Below are positions 2,811 to 44,610 of a stretch of 64,000 nucleotides of DNA, piece after piece. The stretch is taken from positions 1 to 64,000 of the IMG/VR virus record IMGVR_UViG_3300017963_000024. One strand, written 5' to 3'. Under the pieces are notes generated by a model that did no database searches, was not told the origin of the DNA, and worked only from the letters and a program-made list of their open reading frames with translations. Positions within the stretch are counted from its first letter, which is position 1; every line of letters starts with the position of its first letter. This DNA is from a virus. The position numbers and the translations under genes were made by a program.

Positions 2811-3416
2811 TTGAAACACAAATCTTTGTTGGACATCGTAGCGAGTCTCGGAAAGGAGATCAGAAGACCGATGGACAAAATTGAAGTGACACGCGAAGAA
2901 GTTGTGGAGATGTATAACGCACTCCTCAACGCAAAGCTTTTGAGGGGGGACCCTCAGATCACGTATGCCCTTGGAAGGACGAAGCGATCATTGCGCGATC
3001 CGGCTGAGTCGATCACCGAGGGCAACGTCCCCTCTGACGAGTTCAATCAGTTCAACAAGCTTCGGGATGACCTGTGCCAGAAGTTCGCTTTGAAGGACGG
3101 CAAAGGGCGGCCTCTCTCCAGTGGCAATCAGTGGGTCATGGACCCCGACAAGGCCGAGGAGTTCGAGAAAGCCGCCGAAGACCTCAAAGCAAAATACGAG
3201 AAAGCACTCAAAGAAGAGGAAGAGCGGCGCAAGGGCTTCAAAGCTTGGAAACGTGAGAAGATGGACGTAAAGGTCCACAAGGTCAAGCTTTCGGCGCTGA
3301 AGCGAGTCTACAACAAGGAGAAGCCAGAAGAGTCCCTGACGGTTGACCAGATGGACGCACTAGCTCCGATGATTATCGTAGACTTCGACCTCAAAGACGA
3401 AAAGGTTCCCGAGTGA
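2811..3416 (+). CDS. hypothetical charged protein, possibly a tail fibre assembly chaperone
   Basis: K/E-rich helical ORF after the tail gene; alternative start at ATG 2871. Confidence 0.5.
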   Translation: MKHKSLLDIVASLGKEIRRPMDKIEVTREEVVEMYNALLNAKLLRGDPQITYALGRTKRSLRDPAESITEGNVPSDEFNQFNKLRDDLCQKFALKDGKGRPLSSGNQWVMDPDKAEEFEKAAEDLKAKYEKALKEEEERRKGFKAWKREKMDVKVHKVKLSALKRVYNKEKPEESLTVDQMDALAPMIIVDFDLKDEKVPE

Positions 3417-4717
3417 TGGCTCCCGCTACGCAAATGGTTTCGGCCAAGAAAAAGAAGAAAAAGAAGAAGGACAAAGTCAAAGCTTCGGATAATGGGAGGA
3501 ATCTTCGGCTAGAGTGGGTTGATCCCCGCACACTCTCTCCGAATCCGAAGAATTGGCGACGGCATCCAAAGACTCAGGTCGAGTCTGTAGAGGGAGTCAT
3601 CAAAGATGTGGGGTGGGCCGGAACTCTTCTGTTCAACGAAGCGACTGGACGGCTCATTGATGGACATCTCCGAAGAAATCTAGGCTTCAAGGAGGTTCCC
3701 GTTTTGATGGGTAGCTGGACAGAGGAGCAAGAGGCAGAGATTCTAGCGACTCTTGATCCAACAGCCGAGCTTGCTCTGATGAATGAGAAGGCTTTGGCTG
3801 TTGTCATGGCTCAGTCAAAAGCCAAGAGTCCCGCCGTCAAGAGATTATACGATGCCATGCTGAAAGAGAACGAAGGACTTCAGAGGGAAATGGAGTCTTT
3901 GCTCGATCAGCAACTCAGCGATCTTGAAGGCATGGACGACCTCGATCTCGACGAGGGTGATGACTTGACTCCTATCTCAGAAACACCAAACATCTTCTTT
4001 CGAGAAGACGCGGTGTTCTCCTCGACGAACAAGTGGGGATTACCTGATCTCAAAGAGGATATGCTGAGTGAAATCATTCCGACCGAAGTGTTTGGAGGCG
4101 AGTCCATCGAGCAGATTGGTGATCCGTCTCGGTGGTTATTCATGTACGGTAAGGCAAAGTTCACTCCTGAGATGGTACAAGGCGGTGTGCTGGGCTTCTA
4201 CGTTGAAGACGAGAATTTCAACGTGGTGTGGCAAGAAGCTGTTGCGACTGTCGAAAAGCTTTACCGGCTGAATTGGGGTGGGATTATCGCTCCAGACTTC
4301 TCATTATGGGCAGACGATCCACTTGTCGTTCAGCTTTGGAATGTCTATCGGGCAAGGTGGGTTTCTCGATTCTGGCAGGAAGCTGGAATCAAGGTGATCC
4401 CGAACATGGGATGGTCCGACAAGCGAAGCTACGATTTCTGCTTTGACGGGATTCCGAAGAAATGTCCTGTGATTTGCTGTCAGTGCCGTTCCCTCGGACG
4501 GGCGAAAGAGGAGAAAAAGCAGGGTCAAAAAAGTTGGCTCAGAGGATTCATTGAGGGGTGCAAAACGCTTGAACCCGCCAACATTTTGATCTATGGGGGA
4601 ATTGAGCATAGGGCATGGATCGAGAAGGGACTGCCAAAGAAGGGCCTTCCAAAAATCTACTGGCTAGATTCTTGGATGGCAAAACGAAGAGCAGCCAACT
4701 TCAAGATCGGAGACTGA
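3413..4717 (+). CDS. ParB/Srx-like N-terminal domain fused to DUF4417-like domain
   Basis: LSPNPKNWRRH...LIDGHLR (ParB-like); GFYVEDENF, IIAPDFSLW, WNVYRARW, GIKVIPNMGWS, ILIYGG (DUF4417-like). Confidence 0.75.
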   Translation: MMAPATQMVSAKKKKKKKKDKVKASDNGRNLRLEWVDPRTLSPNPKNWRRHPKTQVESVEGVIKDVGWAGTLLFNEATGRLIDGHLRRNLGFKEVPVLMGSWTEEQEAEILATLDPTAELALMNEKALAVVMAQSKAKSPAVKRLYDAMLKENEGLQREMESLLDQQLSDLEGMDDLDLDEGDDLTPISETPNIFFREDAVFSSTNKWGLPDLKEDMLSEIIPTEVFGGESIEQIGDPSRWLFMYGKAKFTPEMVQGGVLGFYVEDENFNVVWQEAVATVEKLYRLNWGGIIAPDFSLWADDPLVVQLWNVYRARWVSRFWQEAGIKVIPNMGWSDKRSYDFCFDGIPKKCPVICCQCRSLGRAKEEKKQGQKSWLRGFIEGCKTLEPANILIYGGIEHRAWIEKGLPKKGLPKIYWLDSWMAKRRAANFKIGD

Positions 4718-4733
4718 AAAGGAGGTGAATCGA

Positions 4734-4874
4734 ATGCGCGCAATCGTAAACCCGAACACTCGGCCCGAAGTTGGAGCCGGGGGCGGCGGTGGCCGTGGAG
4801 GTCGTCGGCGTCGGGGAGCAGGGCTGGCTCGTGCCCTCGGCGGCGTCGGCGGAAGATTCCGTCGAGGCGGCTGA
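4734..4874 (+). CDS. 46-aa Gly/Arg-rich peptide, missing from the ORF track
   Basis: AAGGAGGTG SD at 4719-4727; reads MRAIVNPNTRPEVGAGGGGGRGGRRRRGAGLARALGGVGGRFRRGG*; followed by a terminator. Confidence 0.8.
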   Translation: MRAIVNPNTRPEVGAGGGGGRGGRRRRGAGLARALGGVGGRFRRGG

Positions 4875-4925
4875 GAGCTAGAGTAGTCCTCCAATCCCTC
4901 ACATTCAGCCACCTAGTAGCACAGG

Positions 4926-4963
4926 CGGCCCCGGTCTTACCCACCGGGGCCGTTCTGTTTTTT
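4926..4963 (+). terminator. Rho-independent terminator
   Basis: CGGCCCCGGT / ACCGGGGCCG 10-bp stem followed by TTCTGTTTTTT. Confidence 0.75.
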
Positions 4964-5353
4964 CAACTCTATCCAAAGCTTCACCCACCAATGTCCATTC
5001 GGGTAGTCTACCAGAGCAACCCGCCCGTAATCAGGATCAAACACCTTCCGATCTCTCACAGCAACCCAATGCCCTGAGAGGGATCGTCTTTGCCGCGTGA
5101 TGAGCACGGCACCTTCCCGGCAAATCTCTTGGTCACACCAATCATAGAGATTGAGAGTCTCATCCCAAGTGAACATCTCGTAACGCTTCCCCGTTAGTAT
5201 TCGGAGAAGTTCGATCAACTTGGAACCATCGAGAGATTCTTCTACTCCTAAGCTTTTAGCTGCACGGTATGTCTTACCGTAGGGCTTTCTGGCTAACATT
5301 GCAGCCACAGCTATTCCACAGTCATCTTCCTCTCGTTGCTCGATGATCCGCAT
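4937..5353 (-). CDS. stand-alone peptidase C39-like cysteine protease
   Basis: QREEDDCGIAVAAML (Q-x5-C), GHWVAV, VFDP give a Cys-His-Asp triad; SD GGAGGGG on the minus strand; only convincing minus-strand gene in the window. Confidence 0.8.
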   Translation of the reverse strand: MRIIEQREEDDCGIAVAAMLARKPYGKTYRAAKSLGVEESLDGSKLIELLRILTGKRYEMFTWDETLNLYDWCDQEICREGAVLITRQRRSLSGHWVAVRDRKVFDPDYGRVALVDYPNGHWWVKLWIELKKQNGPGG

Positions 5354-5483
5354 TTGCCCCTCCTATCAGCACTCACATTATTTTCTTTTCCCTCTGGACA
5401 GTCAAGCCGATCCGTGGGATAAAAGGGGGCAAGCTAAAAGAGGGTAAAAACAGAAAGACCAAATCTTTGGAGGATTCGATGAA

Positions 5484-33475: not shown

Positions 33476-33945
33476 AGATGAAAAAGCGAAAGAAGAAGAT
33501 CGGACTGGTCAACGCACTTGGCGGTGGCTCGGATAAGCCCAAGAAGAAAAAGAAGCAGGTCGAGGAAGCTGCCATCGAAGAGAAGCCCAAGAAGAAAAAG
33601 AAGCTGAAGAAGACGAAGAAGACGAAGAAGGGCAAGAAGGACCTCGCTGAACTGAAAGATAAGGTCAAGGCCGAACGTAAGAAGCCGAAGGGCCGCACCA
33701 TTGAGTTTCTCGATCTGAAGGTGGAGTACGATGTCGAGATTCCAGCCAAGGGCCGCCCGTCCTTGAAACGGATTCCGTTCGACAAGCTGAACAAGAAGAA
33801 CGCTTCTTTCTTCATTCCGTTCGAGGAGATGGCTCCTTCACAGGTCAACTCTGCCGTGGGTCAGGAAAATCTCCGTGCCGAAGGGAAGCGCAAGTACATC
33901 TACCGTTCGGTCGAAGGTGGCTCACGAGTCTTCCGAATCGACTAG
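33472..33945 (+). CDS. lysine-rich basic protein, possibly DNA-binding
   Basis: K-rich N-terminal half, globular C-terminus YRSVEGGSRVFRID. Confidence 0.55.
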   Translation: MKMKKRKKKIGLVNALGGGSDKPKKKKKQVEEAAIEEKPKKKKKLKKTKKTKKGKKDLAELKDKVKAERKKPKGRTIEFLDLKVEYDVEIPAKGRPSLKRIPFDKLNKKNASFFIPFEEMAPSQVNSAVGQENLRAEGKRKYIYRSVEGGSRVFRID

Positions 33946-34536
33946 AATGGCTGGTGTTTTTTCGAGAGACTACGGCTCGCACGTTGCAAAGTTTGAGGAC
34001 GTGCGGGCCACAGGGCAGACGATGGGGGGTGCTCTGATTTGTGAGATCAACGGCAAGTCGGAGTTCATCCCCCAAGGCTGTATTGACGACACCAGCGAGG
34101 TTTGGGAACCGGGGCACGAGGGGACGCTTGTGATTTGGGAGAAGATCGCAATCGAAAAAGGTCTGGTGTAGAATGTGTTCCCATGAAGCTTGCGACGAAG
34201 AGGTGGTTGCTGGCGGCTCTTGACGACATTCAAAAGCTTTCAGATGAGTTTGCGAATGACCCACGGGGAGTCGCTGATGCGTTATGGGAAGTGGGCTTTG
34301 AGGTGGAACAGGAACTAGCTTCAATGGATGGGCTACTGCCCAACGAAAGGAGTGATAATGAAGACAAGGCGAGTAACGGTGACGATGGAGATCGAGACTG
34401 ACATCCCTCTGAGTGATCTTCGCAAGAAGGCGAACTGGCATACTGATGTGTGCCGAAGAGGAGAGCGAGTAGCTGAACCTGTGGATGTGAAGCAAGTCAC
34501 GGTTCAGGTCGCCGCCAACTGACAAGCTTCGGTGTA

Positions 34537-34695
34537 CCTGCGGGCTAGGCCAGCACATTGTTTAACCGTGAATAGAATACAGGCACTCATCCTCGTTGTC
34601 AGCGCAAAGAGCACGAGTAGCCTTTTTTCTTTTCCCTTAGACGATGTCGTGCGAAGTGTCCGCAGGAAACGGGCCGGGTTGCTGGTCCCCGGCCC
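34537..34695 (+). ncRNA. candidate structured RNA (rod with central bubble, then a GC hairpin)
   Basis: CCTGCGGGC/GTCCGCAGG, ATTGTTTAA/TTAGACGAT and CTCGT/ACGAG pairings in a ~200-nt intergenic gap. Confidence 0.35.
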
Positions 34696-39568: not shown

Positions 39569-39622
39569 CAGGGGGAGCGGCTCGCCATAGCGGGCCTACC
39601 CTGCTATGGCGGGACTGCTAAC

Positions 39623-39651
39623 TTGACAAAGCTTTGGGCATTTGGTACAAT
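39623..39651 (+). promoter_or_regulatory. sigma70 promoter with AAGCTT in the spacer
   Basis: TTGACA-AAGCTTTGGGCATTTGG-TACAAT. Confidence 0.85.
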
Positions 39652-39707
39652 GTGCCACCATCGAGAAACGGGGATTTCCCCCACACACACAACGAAAGGA
39701 GGAAGCG

Positions 39708-40313
39708 ATGGCAGTAGATCTGAAGAAGAAGTTGGCGGCCTTGAAGGCGAAGGCTGCCGCCGCGAAGAAGGAGTCCAACGGGAAGGTGCCGAAGAAGGGT
39801 GCTTTCAAGGAGGACAAGAAGGCAGCGGCAAAGGTGAAGGGTGAGGTGAAGAAGAAGGGGAAGAAGGACTACGACCCGGACAAGGAGGAGTTGTTCGGCG
39901 GGATGACCGAGAAGGAGATGAAGAAGATCGAGCGGACGACCAATCCGAGGGAACTCGATGTCTCCACCCGGCGTTACCTCCCGCAGATCAACGAGACGTG
40001 TGCCATCCTCCGGCAGATCGAGAAGCTGAACGAGGAAGTCTTCTGCGCGGTGGGGACGTTGCTGTTCGACAGGACGGTGGCGGGAGAATTGAAGTGGGCC
40101 AACCAGTGTCTCAAGGCCAACGACATGGGGCTGGACTTCAAGGGCGAGGTGGATCAGCCTGTCGAGAAGGTGCTCGACGTTCTGTATCTGGCAGGGTTCT
40201 ACGTGGCGGAGGTGCAGAAGAAGCAGATTGCTTTGGCCCACCAGACGAGCAAGGCCAAGGCGGTGGTGCTGGCCGGGAAGGATTCCTGCAAGGTTGCCGT
40301 TGCCAAGGTGTAA
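39708..40313 (+). CDS. early hypothetical protein with Lys/Ala-rich N-terminus
   Basis: own promoter and SD; strongly biased codon usage. Confidence 0.7.
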   Translation: MAVDLKKKLAALKAKAAAAKKESNGKVPKKGAFKEDKKAAAKVKGEVKKKGKKDYDPDKEELFGGMTEKEMKKIERTTNPRELDVSTRRYLPQINETCAILRQIEKLNEEVFCAVGTLLFDRTVAGELKWANQCLKANDMGLDFKGEVDQPVEKVLDVLYLAGFYVAEVQKKQIALAHQTSKAKAVVLAGKDSCKVAVAKV

Positions 40314-40340
40314 AGCGGCTCGCCATAGCGGGGAGGAAAG

Positions 40341-40369
40341 TTGACAAAGCTTTCCTCCCTTGCTATAAT
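40341..40369 (+). promoter_or_regulatory. consensus sigma70 promoter with AAGCTT in the spacer
   Basis: TTGACA-AAGCTTTCCTCCCTTGC-TATAAT. Confidence 0.92.
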
Positions 40370-40424
40370 GTATGCACAGTGAGGGAAGGGATTTCCCCTT
40401 CCCCTTAGACGAAGGAGGAGCGAA

Positions 40425-40676
40425 ATGGCAACATCGAAAGACAGAGAGATCGAGAAGCTGCGGAAGGAACTGGCTGCCATGAAGTCGAAGAAGTCGAAGG
40501 TGGAGTCGGGTCTGAACCTCTCGGTCACGTCGGGCAAGAACAGGCTGGCCGTGGCGGGGCTGGCCGGGATCAAGGGCTACGTGTTCACGTTCAAGCGGGC
40601 GACGATCATGGACATTCTGGAGAACGCGAAGCGCATCGTCGAGTTCCTCGACGAGCACCCCGAGATCGAGGAGTAG
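40425..40676 (+). CDS. early hypothetical protein
   Basis: own promoter and SD; N-terminal coiled coil. Confidence 0.7.
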   Translation: MATSKDREIEKLRKELAAMKSKKSKVESGLNLSVTSGKNRLAVAGLAGIKGYVFTFKRATIMDILENAKRIVEFLDEHPEIEE

Positions 40677-41014
40677 ACCGCCGGAGCACGGCCCCCTTCG
40701 GGGGGCCGCCCCCTCCCGAAACGAACCGCTCCCCGAGGAGCGGCCAGCCATAGGAGGCGAGTATGACGTTGGCAGTACAAGTTTGCCGCGTCTGCCTCCG
40801 ACCGGAGAATCTCTGCAAGTGTACCGAAGCTCTCGAACGCGCCTATGCAGAGAGTGAAGGTCCTTGGATCATTCGGACGGAGGAGGAGATAGCGGCTTTG
40901 GATTGCAGGGGCAGACCATGAGCAAAACATTCAAGGATGATCGAGGCGATGGAGACAAACGTTACCGGCTGCTGATGAAGAAGGCGGAGCAGTCGAGGAA
41001 GGAACGGAGGAGGT

Positions 41015-43119: not shown

Positions 43120-43689
43120 ATGCACGCAGAAGGAAAAGTTGGAGTAAGTGAGTTCGTGCGGAGGCAAACCCCGGAATCACGCTTCGGGCACTTCGAGGGA
43201 ACGTAGGAAGAACTGGTGAAGATGGTCGAGGCAGTTGAAGTGGAGAAGTGGGAGCGTGGCTACCGGGATGGTGTGTGGCTCGTCCCCATAACGCGGAGTG
43301 AGCCGTGGGGGGGTGCGGTACAGAGATTCTTCACCAGCATCGTTCCCACGAAAGGCCGAATCATGTACGGGAGGTGGGAGGCGAGGAGGCCGGGTGAGAA
43401 ACCTGTGATGGTCCGAACGGTAGCTGGTGACAAAACCAGAGCTAACTTCGTGGCAATCGTGCTCTACGAAGATTGGGTGCTCGCGGAAGACAACGAACGG
43501 TCCACCGACAAGAAGTACGAGATCATCTCCATCAACGCCTCCCCGTTGGACAAGGATGTTCCGATGACCCCGGAAACGATGAAGCGCAACATGAACCACG
43601 AGGCTGGGGGAACGAAGGGAACATACACAGACGAGGAGTTCGCGGAGTCGGAGGCTTTCTGGAAGGCTCACGCAATGGTGGAGAGGTGA
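43120..43689 (+). pseudogene. DUF3228-like gene interrupted by an in-frame TAG at 43204-43206
   Basis: SD + ATG 43120 reads MHAEGKVGVSEFVRRQTPESRFGHFEGT*EELVKMV..., in frame with GYRDGV, RRPGE, IISIN, PMTPETMKRN...GGT. Confidence 0.65.
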
Positions 43690-44610
43690 GATGCTGAAGA
43701 CGATGCTGGGCGGACTGGTGAAGGAGGGGCTGAAACAAACGAGTGAGTTCAGGAATCGCCCCTCCGGGTTGTATGACAGGAACGAGGAAGAATTGACGTT
43801 CGAGGAGGTTTTCAAACACCTCCTCGATGCGCTAAGAAAAGGATAATCTGCGAGCGGTGAGACGGATACCTTCCCCCGTCACCCGTGTCGAGGGGCAGTC
43901 TTTCGGGACTGCCCCTTTTTTTGTCCTCGTCGCTCTGTGGACGAGCGGTGCATTTGACTTGCTAGCGGCGCGCCTTACGCTTCGTGGAGGTCGTTCAGTC
44001 AAAGCTTTCCTGAAAACGCGCGGTGCAGCTTTTAACGGCAGACTCGACGCTTTTGGACCCCCCCCGAACAGAAGTTCGTACCCCCTGACCGACCCCCTGA
44101 CCGGGGGTGTCAAAGCTTTGACGGTGCCGTGAAGTGTCACATGGTCAAAGTTTGTCACTTTCCAAAAGTCAAAGCTTTTCGACCACTTAGGGGGGAAGGT
44201 TCAAGGAAATTCGACCTTTGTGTCAAAGCTTTGACGGTAGTGCGAACAAACGTTCACGATAGGACGTCAAGGACCGTGCCAAAAGCTTTGAACCTTCAAA
44301 GCTTTGACGTTGGCACGGTCCTAGCTACCATTCCGAACCATGATCGGTTCACGTTCCCCCCCTTCGGTTCCCCTTCGGTCAAGCCTTCCCCTTGGAAGGT
44401 GAGGAACCAAAGGGGATTCGGCACCTTCCAAGGTGAGCAGTCAGGGATTGCAGAATAATCGTGGCTCCTGATTGGCCGAACGAAGGTTCGGTCACGTCAC
44501 TCCAGTTCTGATGATCGAAACCTTGGAAGGGGTGACAGGGAAGGGGAACCCTTCCTACCGAATAAGAACCCAAAAGCTTTGAACCTACAACGATCAAGGG
44601 AAGGTGAGAA

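Follow-up and report, generated by a model that had tools for sequence, protein, structure and literature searches.

Which common task joins three adjoining genes in the viral record IMGVR_UViG_3300017963_000024 (positions 1-64,000, the whole 64-kb stretch analysed here and called the window)? They encode a ParB-DUF4417 fusion protein, a 46-aa Gly/Arg ORF and a peptidase of the C39 fold. The papers found that name DUF4417 do not describe its partners; our literature searches found no description of a peptidase-linked DUF4417 form. All three genes had been proposed earlier from the letters of the sequence, and the ORF list together with the sequence places them where the original prediction had them (3413/3416-4717, 4734-4874 and 4937-5353), including the 46-aa ORF with its strong Shine-Dalgarno (SD) sequence. 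The following features are relevant:

3413-4717, plus strand: ParB-DUF4417 fusion gene (ORF list, Pfam, PHROG)
3500-3757, plus strand: ParB/sulfiredoxin-fold domain, about residues 30-115, with a D-G-H-x-R motif
3995-4702, plus strand: DUF4417 domain, residues about 195-430, predicted TIM barrel
4720-4725, plus strand: Shine-Dalgarno sequence AGGAGG of the peptide ORF, 8 nt upstream of its ATG
4734-4874, plus strand: 46-aa Gly/Arg ORF, with the sequence as originally predicted
4734-4778, plus strand: putative propeptide leader MRAIVNPNTRPEVGA, 15 residues
4779-4874, plus strand: peptide core with GGGGG, Arg-rich tail and stop codon, 31 residues
4924-4964, plus strand: terminator-like hairpin with a 12-bp stem, 9 G-C pairs and a T run
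4937-5353, minus strand: C39-fold cysteine peptidase of 138 aa, stand-alone and convergent with the peptide gene
5377-5405, minus strand: sigma-70-like promoter match TTGACT-17 nt-AATAAT upstream of the peptidase, 10/12 consensus

The hairpin marks the end of the plus-strand unit and extends into the 3' end of the peptidase gene. Lysis genes precede the module in the window (amidase, 1147-1632). The minus strand of the 64-kb window contains further long ORFs, e.g. 33845-34558 and 39618-40751, without family matches.

The ParB-DUF4417 protein

The gene starts either with GTG at 3413 (434 aa) or, likelier, with ATG at 3416 (433 aa, the length of the database copy P0001), overlapping the upstream stop, and the protein carries a run of eight lysines at its N-terminus. 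Its relatives P0002 and P0003 are 64% and 50% identical. The Pfam family DUF4417 (PF14386) scores 137.1 bits on residues 257-401, where the cut-off is 28.9, and 138.8 bits in a six-frame genome search. ParB-like PHROG families match residues 30-137 (phrog_940, E 1.7e-50), and Pfam ParBc gave no match to the protein at E ≤0.01. In the alignment of homologues D82, G83, H84 and R86 are near-invariant. The ParB part resembles the ParB-N domain of pNOB8 in Foldseek (5k5d_B, E 7e-4; also 6sdk_A and 7bnr_A) and PadC in a fold comparison (6ryk_B, Z 9.7). Judged by these fold matches and residues the N-terminal domain is a ParB/sulfiredoxin fold with a conserved Arg-containing nucleotide-binding motif, and NTP binding is predicted.

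The original prediction noted that ParB-like domains are often fused to phage DNA-modifying enzymes, and the very same ParB module is indeed found on DNA methyltransferases elsewhere. In 21 of the 120 matches listed the ParB part alone was aligned and the DNA methylase family PF01555 was present; among the matches listed the window ParB module is 41-58% identical to the methylase-fused modules, in alignments that cover the N-terminal 21-43% of the window protein. The accessible part of a recent report describes this class of phage ParB-methyltransferase fusions (bioRxiv 10.1101/2025.10.10.680097). The window protein shares the N-terminal ParB module with them and differs in that a C-terminal DUF4417 replaces the methylase and that a peptide partner and a peptidase are added.

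The AF2 model of the DUF4417 domain has a pLDDT above 90, and an invariant set of residues (D, D, S, R, Y) sits past the C-terminal strand ends of the predicted barrel. In VIA-align the top barrel rows were ArcTGT (Z 10.3), QTRT2 (9.9) and DpdA (9.8). Unrelated TIM barrels reached 9.3, Cap10 was at rank 49 by fold (Z 7.5), and Foldseek returned generic barrels only. A profile of DUF4417 compared with eight phage DpdA sequences gave an hhalign probability of 0.33%; neither a PDB sequence match nor a match to the Pfam TGT family (PF01702) was found for the domain. The suggestion of a TGT-like barrel thus keeps a weak lean by predicted fold (Z 10.3 vs 9.3 for unrelated barrels) and loses its sequence side: the barrel model weakly resembles TGT and DpdA, with no likeness by sequence.

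The putative leadered glycine-run peptide

The core of the window peptide has nine Arg and no acidic residue. Its codons are mixed (GGA, GGG, GGC and GGT for Gly, CGT and CGG for Arg), which argues that the core is not a simple DNA repeat. An SD-led ORF of the same design (leader, Gly run and, in most cases, a polycationic tail) is located between ParB-DUF4417 and the peptidase in all nine peptidase-bearing locus clusters (defined below). The leaders before the Gly run are 7-19 residues long in these nine clusters, and the junction offers a G-[A/G/S] dipeptide with Gly after it in every lineage. The predicted cores are Arg- or Lys-rich without acidic residues in 9 out of 10 cases in peptidase-bearing lineages, the exception being the non-cationic core GGGGGIAVNFVV of locus L010.

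Such ORFs are concentrated behind DUF4417. The slot of 305 nt after the DUF4417 gene contained, in 46 representative loci, 11 SD-led ORFs with at least four consecutive Gly in the first 35 residues, compared to 6 elsewhere in the same loci (about 690 kb, both strands), so that the slot is approximately 90-fold denser. In one group (L086, L088, L089, L094 and L100) the leader MK(D/E)IYGN is conserved and the tails are divergent, each ORF has an SD, and all lengths (222-243 nt) are multiples of three. As judged from these sequences, this pattern is a coding signal for the peptide ORF. At locus L102, from an Acidobacteria MAG, the DUF4417 frame continues stop-free into MGNKLQNESIGN-GGGGGGGG-TGGRGGRGGR..., and the peptidase abuts.

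The leaders are short, unlike canonical double-glycine leaders, which speaks against a processing model. A cut right before the Gly run would place A, K, R or N at P1.

The peptidase

The peptidase gene has AGGAGGGG 5 nt upstream of its ATG; the sigma-70-like promoter further upstream is a consensus match only, with 3 such matches in the region vs 1.5 expected. The gene product had been described as C39-like, and it does have a predicted C39 fold with the Q/C/H/D residues conserved. Pfam Peptidase_C39 (PF03412) reaches 19.7 bits on the window protein, which is below the cut-off of 22 and covers residues 2-58 only; it matches 8 of the 11 family members at E ≤0.1 (best 1.7e-4). The AF2 model (pLDDT 90.8) found the double-glycine peptidase domains of ComA, PCAT1 and LahT as best Foldseek matches (E 2e-5, TM 0.63-0.65), the top rows being 5xe8_A (E 2.2e-5, TM 0.63/0.65), 7n87, 3k8u, 8vp5_B and 6mpz_D. 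A profile search against the PDB likewise returned the ComA peptidase domain as best match (E 0.003), with Q and DCG aligned to ComA. Invariant in 11 peptidase sequences are Q6, D11-C12-G13, G94-H95 and D106-P107, and Q6, C12, H95 and D106 fit, by conservation, the oxyanion Gln, the catalytic Cys and His and the Asp of C39. The family is tiny, with 16 proteins among 5.8 billion clusters.

Co-occurrence of the three genes

To define loci, the best 80 of 115 DUF4417 relatives, the peptidase-seeded loci and the window were clustered at 70% identity, leading to 49 DUF4417 locus clusters. A peptidase homologue occurs in 9 of the 49, and in all nine DUF4417 is ParB-fused and the peptidase convergent. 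No peptidase was found in the eight clusters whose partner starts with M-G-(G/S/R/N). This is the distribution that the original prediction had set as its test, namely C39 with leadered partners and none with MGG starts (9 vs 0/8 clusters). For the leader/peptidase association the one-sided Fisher test gave p values of 0.0013 to 0.004, which overstate independence since the lineages are related, and the table omits 27 of the 49 clusters that have no Gly-run partner by the criteria used. Leadered Gly-run ORFs without a peptidase occur at L033, L035 and, with a DUF4417 that looks degraded, L039-43.

Starting from the peptidase, a convergent ParB-DUF4417 gene was found within about 80-370 nt in 16 out of 16 viral loci, 7 of them on further contigs. 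The bacterial loci have it in two of five cases plus one remnant, and one trio locus is a prophage of Paraburkholderia panacisoli; for the bacterial peptidase homologues L101 and L103, no DUF4417 gene lies within 4 kb. A quick DUF4417 tree shows the peptidase-bearing lineages scattered, requiring at least three changes, so that the trio appears to have been kept or regained across deep divergence. The gene anatomy, the folds, the conserved catalytic residues and the synteny, seen from both search directions, are observations.

The partners of other DUF4417 genes are informative as well. The original prediction named ORFs beginning with MGGRG as frequent followers of DUF4417, which holds in the loci analysed: MGGRG-type starts directly follow at L034, L045-L054, L056, L057 and others. 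These partners are complete and unrelated proteins of 100-260 aa with the tag at residue 2. In the window the Gly-rich tag also follows directly after DUF4417, but behind the leader of 15 residues. Many ParB-DUF4417 loci without a Gly-run partner have a Lys/Ala-rich MAKKK... protein next, and at stand-alone DUF4417 loci the next protein has GGKY 3-9 residues in; a Gly N-terminus on DUF4417 partners is therefore not universal.

Proposed mechanism and alternatives

We propose a three-gene phage module in which removal of the leader by the peptidase exposes the oligo-Gly end for use by DUF4417, probably on DNA; this we judge about equally apt to prove right or wrong. ParB-DUF4417 would unite a ParB-fold NTP-binding, DNA-associating domain and a TIM-barrel enzyme domain in one protein, and the 46-residue propeptide, with its 15-residue leader, oligoglycine run and Arg-rich tail, would be co-transcribed with it. 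The convergent, separately promoted C39-type peptidase may cut at or just inside the leader/Gly junction (..VGA/GGGGG or ..GG/GGG, the slash denoting the cut), leading to a peptide that starts with several glycines. Other DUF4417 genes have M-G-G-(R/S)-G partners, which would arrive at an N-terminus of the same type simply by losing Met, and the free oligoglycine end could be a handle which is bound or chemically used by the DUF4417 domain. The peptidase probably trims the leader of the peptide, and the conserved trio suggests that the DUF4417 enzyme requires a partner with a free N-terminal glycine. Phage DNA would be the most likely site of DUF4417 action, given the fusion to ParB and the polycationic tails. 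Translation of the peptide ORF, its cleavage and the cleavage site, the chemistry of DUF4417 and DNA as its target are what we infer from these data. A more specific version, in which a ParB-guided DUF4417 covalently joins the free N-terminal Gly of its partner to phage DNA or a base as a peptide or protein hypermodification, with a protamine-like polycation as the cargo here and the C39 peptidase licensing the reaction by generating the reactive Gly end, is unlikely.

The opposite strand and the separate promoter of the peptidase would also permit antagonism rather than cooperation. The peptidase could act as a deconjugase, confer immunity or switch the system off by clipping the Gly-run peptide, or a conjugate made by DUF4417, and be expressed from its own promoter at another time (e.g. 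early or in the lysogen). The opposite orientation in 9 out of 9 clusters, the promoter-like site and the hairpin shared between the 3' ends in the window, and Josephin-type deubiquitinases (papain-like folds) lower in the fold list are in agreement with this. A general deconjugase would yet be expected with MGG-start partners too, where it occurs in 0/8 clusters; the presence of the peptidase follows that of the leader, and the in-frame form at L102 requires a cut to free the peptide, so that we regard antagonism as unlikely. If, instead, the polycationic peptide acted alone in DNA condensation, restriction masking or host nucleoid shut-off, the peptidase would merely activate it, and ParB-DUF4417 would handle DNA independently, as a neighbour by a shared DNA task. 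The Arg-/Lys-rich cores without acidic residues (9/10) favor this, and so do the Lys/Ala-rich proteins without a Gly N-terminus next to peptidase-free ParB-DUF4417 genes. It is improbable in our view, as it leaves unexplained the oligo-Gly start of every predicted processed peptide and the M-G-G-R-G start common to unrelated full-size partners, and as the L010 core is non-cationic.

An enzyme, a leadered small peptide and a C39 peptidase also make up the classical RiPP layout. DUF4417 might modify the core in a leader-dependent manner and C39 might remove the leader, as for a lanthipeptide or class II bacteriocin, giving a product directed at membranes or cells (as a lysis aid, as a toxin or for killing competitors). 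The nearest solved folds are those of domains that process bacteriocins and quorum peptides, and in the window the module comes after the lysis genes. Against this reading, no match to the ABC transporter family PF00005 was found in the complete 86,832-bp phage genome, leaders of only 7-9 residues do not suffice for the usual leader recognition, and the cores consist of low-complexity poly-Gly/Arg/Lys sequence. It is moreover ParB-DUF4417 and not the lysis genes that is conserved as a neighbour, and DUF4417 partners elsewhere are whole proteins tagged at residue 2; a bacteriocin-like unit thus seems rather unlikely. Very improbable, finally, is that the 46-codon frame is untranslated GC-rich spacer or terminator DNA between convergent genes. 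Frames on the opposite strand are likewise open across the GC-rich stretch, but SD-led ORFs of the same design fill the slot in all nine peptidase-bearing clusters with differing GC and codon choice, indels in the L086 group stay in frame with the leader conserved, the slot enrichment is about 90-fold, and at L102 the fusion is in frame.

Relation to known systems

Glycine N-termini as enzyme handles are described, in the accessible parts of the respective reports, for CdnD with Cap10 (M(G/S)G(G/S)GG; bioRxiv 10.1101/2025.04.06.647259) and for QatB (MGTS; PMC13279940). According to the same parts, type IV CBASS Cap9/Cap10 with CdnD (N-terminal deazaguanylation) and QatBC have a flexible glycine-starting tail whose first Gly has to be free, and the pocket of a TIM-barrel TGT-family enzyme holds this end. 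As far as these sources describe them, the proposed module would share with both systems a glycine-starting partner tail and a TIM-barrel enzyme. It differs from Cap9/Cap10 in being phage-encoded with the enzyme fused to ParB, in a Gly end predicted to be exposed by a dedicated peptidase and not by Met removal, in the missing sequence relation of DUF4417 to TGT/DpdA, and in the phage having no QueC-like ligase: PF06508 was not matched anywhere in the complete genome of the phage, with a control that was positive in 13 of 14 genomes, although a host enzyme might take the place of the ligase.

DpdB, a ParB-fold NTPase, acts on DNA together with the TIM-barrel enzyme DpdA in 7-deazaguanine insertion, as described in the accessible part of PMC10164549. 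The order of a ParB-like and then a DpdA-like gene is annotated in the actinophages Godines, Hilltopfarm and Sonali. The pairing of a ParB fold with a barrel is similar, with DpdA among the top three fold matches of DUF4417. Unlike Dpd, ParB and barrel are fused in the window, no preQ0 pathway genes accompany the window's ParB-DUF4417, the hhalign probability to DpdA is negligible, and there is a peptide partner, which Dpd does not have.

With the C39 domains of PCATs (ComA, PCAT1, LahT) the peptidase shares the fold, the Gln/Cys/His/Asp set, a short leader and Gly-(Gly/Ala/Ser) at the junction of the predicted substrate. It differs in standing alone (138 aa) in a genome without an ABC transporter, in a Pfam score under the curated cut-off, and in leaders that are not canonical amphipathic ones. 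The adenovirus cysteine protease cuts at Gly-containing sites in pVII and pX/mu, leading to Arg-rich peptides that coat the packaged genome. This is an analogy only: the protease belongs to another clan, the virus is a eukaryotic one, and no DUF4417-like enzyme is known to be involved.

Conclusions

DUF4417 is a common phage domain of unassigned function, and the trio provides a three-protein biochemical system in which it can be tested; one copy of the trio lies in the culturable host Paraburkholderia panacisoli. The peptidase-linked form represents a natural experiment: the protease accompanies a Gly tag that is buried behind a leader and is absent where the tag directly follows Met, which indicates that a free N-terminal oligoglycine is the feature that matters. 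If the chemistry involves DNA, this would be a new viral way to decorate or package genomes, and a phage-side counterpart of the conjugation at N-terminal glycines that was recently discovered in bacterial immunity.

Organization of the module in the phage genome

The virus record is complete (86,832 bp with direct terminal repeats), and the window represents its first 64 kb. The three genes that the original prediction had grouped are all present, according to both the ORF list and the reading of the sequence, and are arranged as follows:

3413-4717, plus strand: ParB-DUF4417 fusion gene, a 434-codon frame in the ORF list
4734-4874, plus strand: small Gly/Arg ORF, 46 codons, with AGGAGG 8 nt 5' of the ATG
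4937-5353, minus strand: peptidase gene, 138 codons, likewise with a strong SD
4924-4964: hairpin with a G+C-rich 12-bp stem and a T run, at which the plus-strand unit ends and which extends into the 3' end of the peptidase gene
Upstream of the minus-strand peptidase gene: promoter-like consensus match TTGACT-17-AATAAT

The likely start of ParB-DUF4417 is the ATG at 3416, which overlaps the stop of the upstream gene; the database copy has 433 residues. Eight consecutive Lys codons (AAG/AAA) stand at the start of the gene (3440-3466). Lysis genes are found on one side of the module and replication genes on the other.

Some further parts of the window were inspected. The long minus-strand ORFs match no PHROG or Pfam family, and the one at 43177-43815 is probably a shadow, since a plus-strand ORF overlapping it (43216-43689) matches Pfam DUF3228 (E 1.6e-14). 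The 652-residue protein encoded at 60496-62454 matches PHROG head-maturation-protease families with its last ~120 residues and a family without known function with its first ~110. Just 3' of the amidase gene, positions 1632-2801 encode a 389-residue protein that matches no Pfam family and contains very long stretches of Gly (GGGGGGGGGG). It was considered as a substrate of the peptidase and rejected, as outside the window it occurs only in L003 and L004, the loci of the closest ParB-DUF4417 homologues, where the copy is 52% identical.

Coding potential of the small ORF

To judge whether the small ORF is a gene we counted SD-led ORFs with at least four consecutive Gly residues near their start in 46 loci. 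The slot that follows DUF4417 holds 11 of them versus 6 elsewhere in the same loci, an approximately 90-fold higher density. In one group of related loci (L086, L088, L089, L094 and L100) the leader MK(D/E)IYGN is conserved and the tails are divergent, and every length difference is a multiple of three. The Gly run in the window is not a simple DNA repeat, because Gly and Arg codons are mixed. None of the sequencing runs searched that carry this stretch is an RNA run; the two that carry it are DNA runs from sediment and seawater metagenomes, from which the record may derive.

In an Acidobacteria metagenome-assembled genome (L102:4390-5814, minus strand) ParB-DUF4417, leader, Gly run and an Arg-rich tail lie in one frame. 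The DUF4417 frame lacks a stop and reads directly into the leader and Gly run, which are still preceded by an SD and an ATG. A sequencing error could explain this join, as could a natural fusion.

Co-occurrence of peptidase, leader and DUF4417

A single window protein as query returned no viral relative. An alignment of 27 ParB-DUF4417 sequences yielded 115 viral relatives, of which the best 80 were kept, and the peptidase alignment yielded 16 viral and five bacterial loci. All DUF4417 ORFs were clustered at 70% identity, leading to 49 clusters; for the closest homologues, P0002 and P0003, gene neighbourhoods were read from the IMG/VR copies L003 and L004.

The peptidase occurs in nine of the 49 clusters (window, L003, L007, L010, L011, L025/L087, L037, L086 and L090). 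In all nine, DUF4417 is fused to ParB, the peptidase gene is convergent, and an SD-led ORF between both genes encodes a leader of 7-19 residues and a Gly run, in most cases with a polycationic tail behind it. Junctions between leader and Gly run (marked by a slash) read:

..YRGK/GGGGSRGRR..
..IEGR/GGGGGVGGG..
..IPIRR/GGGGG..
..EEAR/GGSGGGGKKAKK..
..FLVGR/GGGGGGKAAAK..
MKDIYGN/GGGGGKGE..
..GGDGK/GGGGGKKAKK..

In eight clusters the partner starts with M-G-(G/S/R/N) (e.g. MGGRGSGGG..., MGGRSGGGGR...), so that ORFs of the MGGRG kind, originally named as frequent followers of DUF4417, do exist in these loci; a peptidase stands beside none of the eight. The association proposed originally, C39 with leadered partners and none with MGG starts, is therefore observed, with three leadered clusters without peptidase as exceptions (L033, L035, L039) and L055 and L019/L023 as weak further cases. 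No peptidase was found in the whole records of five leadered and five MGG-start loci, all ten of which are fragments. The one-sided Fisher test gives p = 0.0013 (9/0 versus 3/8) or 0.004 (9/0 versus 5/8), values which are generous because the lineages are related and which leave out 27 clusters without a Gly-run partner by our criteria.

Starting from the peptidase, all 16 viral loci have a convergent ParB-DUF4417 alongside, seven of them on contigs outside the DUF4417-seeded set. The bacterial loci comprise the complete trio in L100 (a prophage of Paraburkholderia panacisoli DCY113) and L102, a remnant of it in L104, and two loci (L101, L103) with no DUF4417 within 4 kb of the peptidase. In these two the homologues lie in metagenome-assembled genomes at L101:4001-4393 and L103:3959-4369. 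By eye, the former adjoins a 665-residue protein that resembles an NTPase and two ORFs that resemble a toxin-antitoxin pair of the nucleotidyltransferase/HEPN type, and the latter is near an ORF resembling an integrase.

A quick DUF4417 tree was built from 51 rows, rooted at the midpoint and with SH-aLRT as its sole support measure; on it the peptidase-bearing rows require four changes. They do not form one shallow clade, since at least three of these changes are forced by well-supported branches. The group L039-L043, sister to the peptidase-bearing L010, has a degraded-looking DUF4417 frame: in five near-identical contigs the ORF (~4080-4691) is N-terminally truncated and scrambled, and is followed by a 27-residue leadered GGRGGGSS ORF and no peptidase. 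It seems to be a copy of the module in decay.

Other partners of DUF4417

Many ParB-DUF4417 loci have a Lys/Ala-rich MAKKK... protein as the next gene. In the peptidase-free loci L005, L006, L012-L014 and L020-L022 these proteins (MAKKKAA...) have 98-185 residues, directly follow ParB-DUF4417 and are reminiscent of histone H1. Stand-alone DUF4417 loci have no peptidase, and the next protein carries GGKY a few residues in; in L060-L082 such partners have 60-95 residues, a G-G-K-Y (or GGI-Y) motif that lies 3-9 residues after the start, and a KRRKKRK-type tail, and in several of these loci the following ORF looks portal-like by sequence. Eight Lys-rich partners and two Gly-run peptides matched no Pfam family. 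The module often borders packaging genes, as DUF4417 and its small partner lie directly upstream of an HTH protein resembling the small terminase subunit in L033, L035 and L039-L044.

The two proteins

The window peptidase reaches 19.7 bits against Pfam Peptidase_C39, under the cut-off of 22, and 8 of 11 family members match. In a PDB search the profile of the family has the ComA peptidase domain as its best hit (E 0.003). The AF2 model (pLDDT 90.8) is most similar to the double-glycine peptidase domains of ComA, PCAT1 and LahT (E 2e-5 to 9e-4, TM ~0.6), and Q6, D11-C12-G13, G94-H95 and D106-P107 do not vary within the family. With 16 proteins in a collection of 5.8 billion clusters, this family is very small. 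The peptidase stands alone; the complete phage genome contains no ABC transporter. A predicted complex with the 46-residue peptide scored 0.00, from which nothing was inferred.

In ParB-DUF4417, ParB-like PHROG families match residues 30-137 and Pfam DUF4417 matches residues 257-401 (137 bits). The AF2 model (mean pLDDT 80.5, DUF4417 part above 90) consists of a ParB-N fold matching 5k5d_B, 6sdk_A and 6ryk_B (Z 9.7 for the last), a helical linker and a TIM barrel. Among the 120 best-listed homologues, 21 match in the ParB part alone, where they are 41-58% identical, and contain the DNA methylase family PF01555. Sequence comparison thus indicates one ParB module swapped between DNA methylase and DUF4417, and agrees with the earlier statement that ParB-like domains are often fused to DNA-modifying enzymes. 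Both fusions are called phage-typical in a 2025 preprint (10.1101/2025.10.10.680097).

Fold comparison leans weakly towards the suggested TGT-like barrel. VIA-align of the predicted barrel gives its highest scores to three TGT-family structures (ArcTGT Z 10.3, QTRT2 9.9, DpdA 9.8), with unrelated barrels reaching Z 9.3 and Cap10 7.5. By sequence the relation is not seen: the DUF4417 profile returned nothing relevant among PDB sequences, Pfam TGT does not match, and hhalign against eight phage DpdA sequences gave a probability of 0.33%, for which reason homology to TGT was not adopted. In BFVD, the matches by fold were all ParB proteins or unnamed relatives with DUF4417, and a search of the protein atlas with the domain gave no usable match. 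Because the fold ranking lies near unrelated barrels and sequence methods see nothing, "TGT-like" is a lead from modelling and not a result.

Potential function of the module

At the junction each leadered peptide has Gly-(Gly/Ala/Ser) and then another Gly, and Gly-(Gly/Ala/Ser) is the classical C39 cut site. The peptidase would probably cut at this junction and leave an oligoglycine N-terminus, while MGG-start partners would reach the same Gly end by ordinary Met removal. The main argument that this free end may be what DUF4417 needs is that the peptidase tracks the leader and not DUF4417 as such. Precedents come from three papers. CdnD starts with M(G/S)G(G/S)GG, and its G2 bears deazaguanine and sits in the pocket of TGT-family Cap10 (bioRxiv 10.1101/2025.04.06.647259); QatB (MGTS) with QatC is a second case of a Gly end as enzyme handle (PMC13279940); and the ParB-fold NTPase DpdB helps the barrel enzyme DpdA to act on DNA (PMC10164549). 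The complete phage genome has no QueC-like gene; a Cap9-type step would thus depend on an enzyme from the host, unless the chemistry is a different one.

Less probably, the peptidase is an antagonist of the system, a role that its opposite strand and separate putative promoter would suit as well. Against leader removal one must keep in mind that the leaders are short and atypical. The Gly-end reading is further opposed by leadered loci without peptidase (L033, L035, L039), by peptidases without DUF4417 (L101, L103), by the MAKKK... partners and the peptidase-free GGKY partners, and by the weak evidence as to what DUF4417 is. Leader removal is a well motivated, putative role of the peptidase.

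In the actinophages Godines, Hilltopfarm and Sonali the annotation lists a ParB-like gene, a DpdA-like transglycosylase and QueC/D/E genes in this order (ParB-like/DpdA-like loci L106:1-1829, L107:202-2050 and L108:890-2370). These ParB-like and DpdA-like genes parallel the ParB-barrel arrangement in unfused form.

Each part can be placed in a known family (ParB fold, DUF4417, C39 fold), but their assembly matches no described system. Bacteriocin systems have an ABC transporter and deazaguanylation systems a QueC ligase, both missing from the phage module, and the sequence signature of TGT and DpdA is absent from DUF4417. The accessible literature naming DUF4417 mentions no partner or peptidase, and our search for phage C39, ParB and glycine-rich combinations found nothing on this module. 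The original observation holds, and its interpretation is supported in part, through the co-occurrence of leader and peptidase. We conclude that the three genes form a genuine, conserved module that had not been described; by analogy, DNA would be its likeliest place of action because of the ParB-NTPase/barrel precedents together with the polycationic tails.
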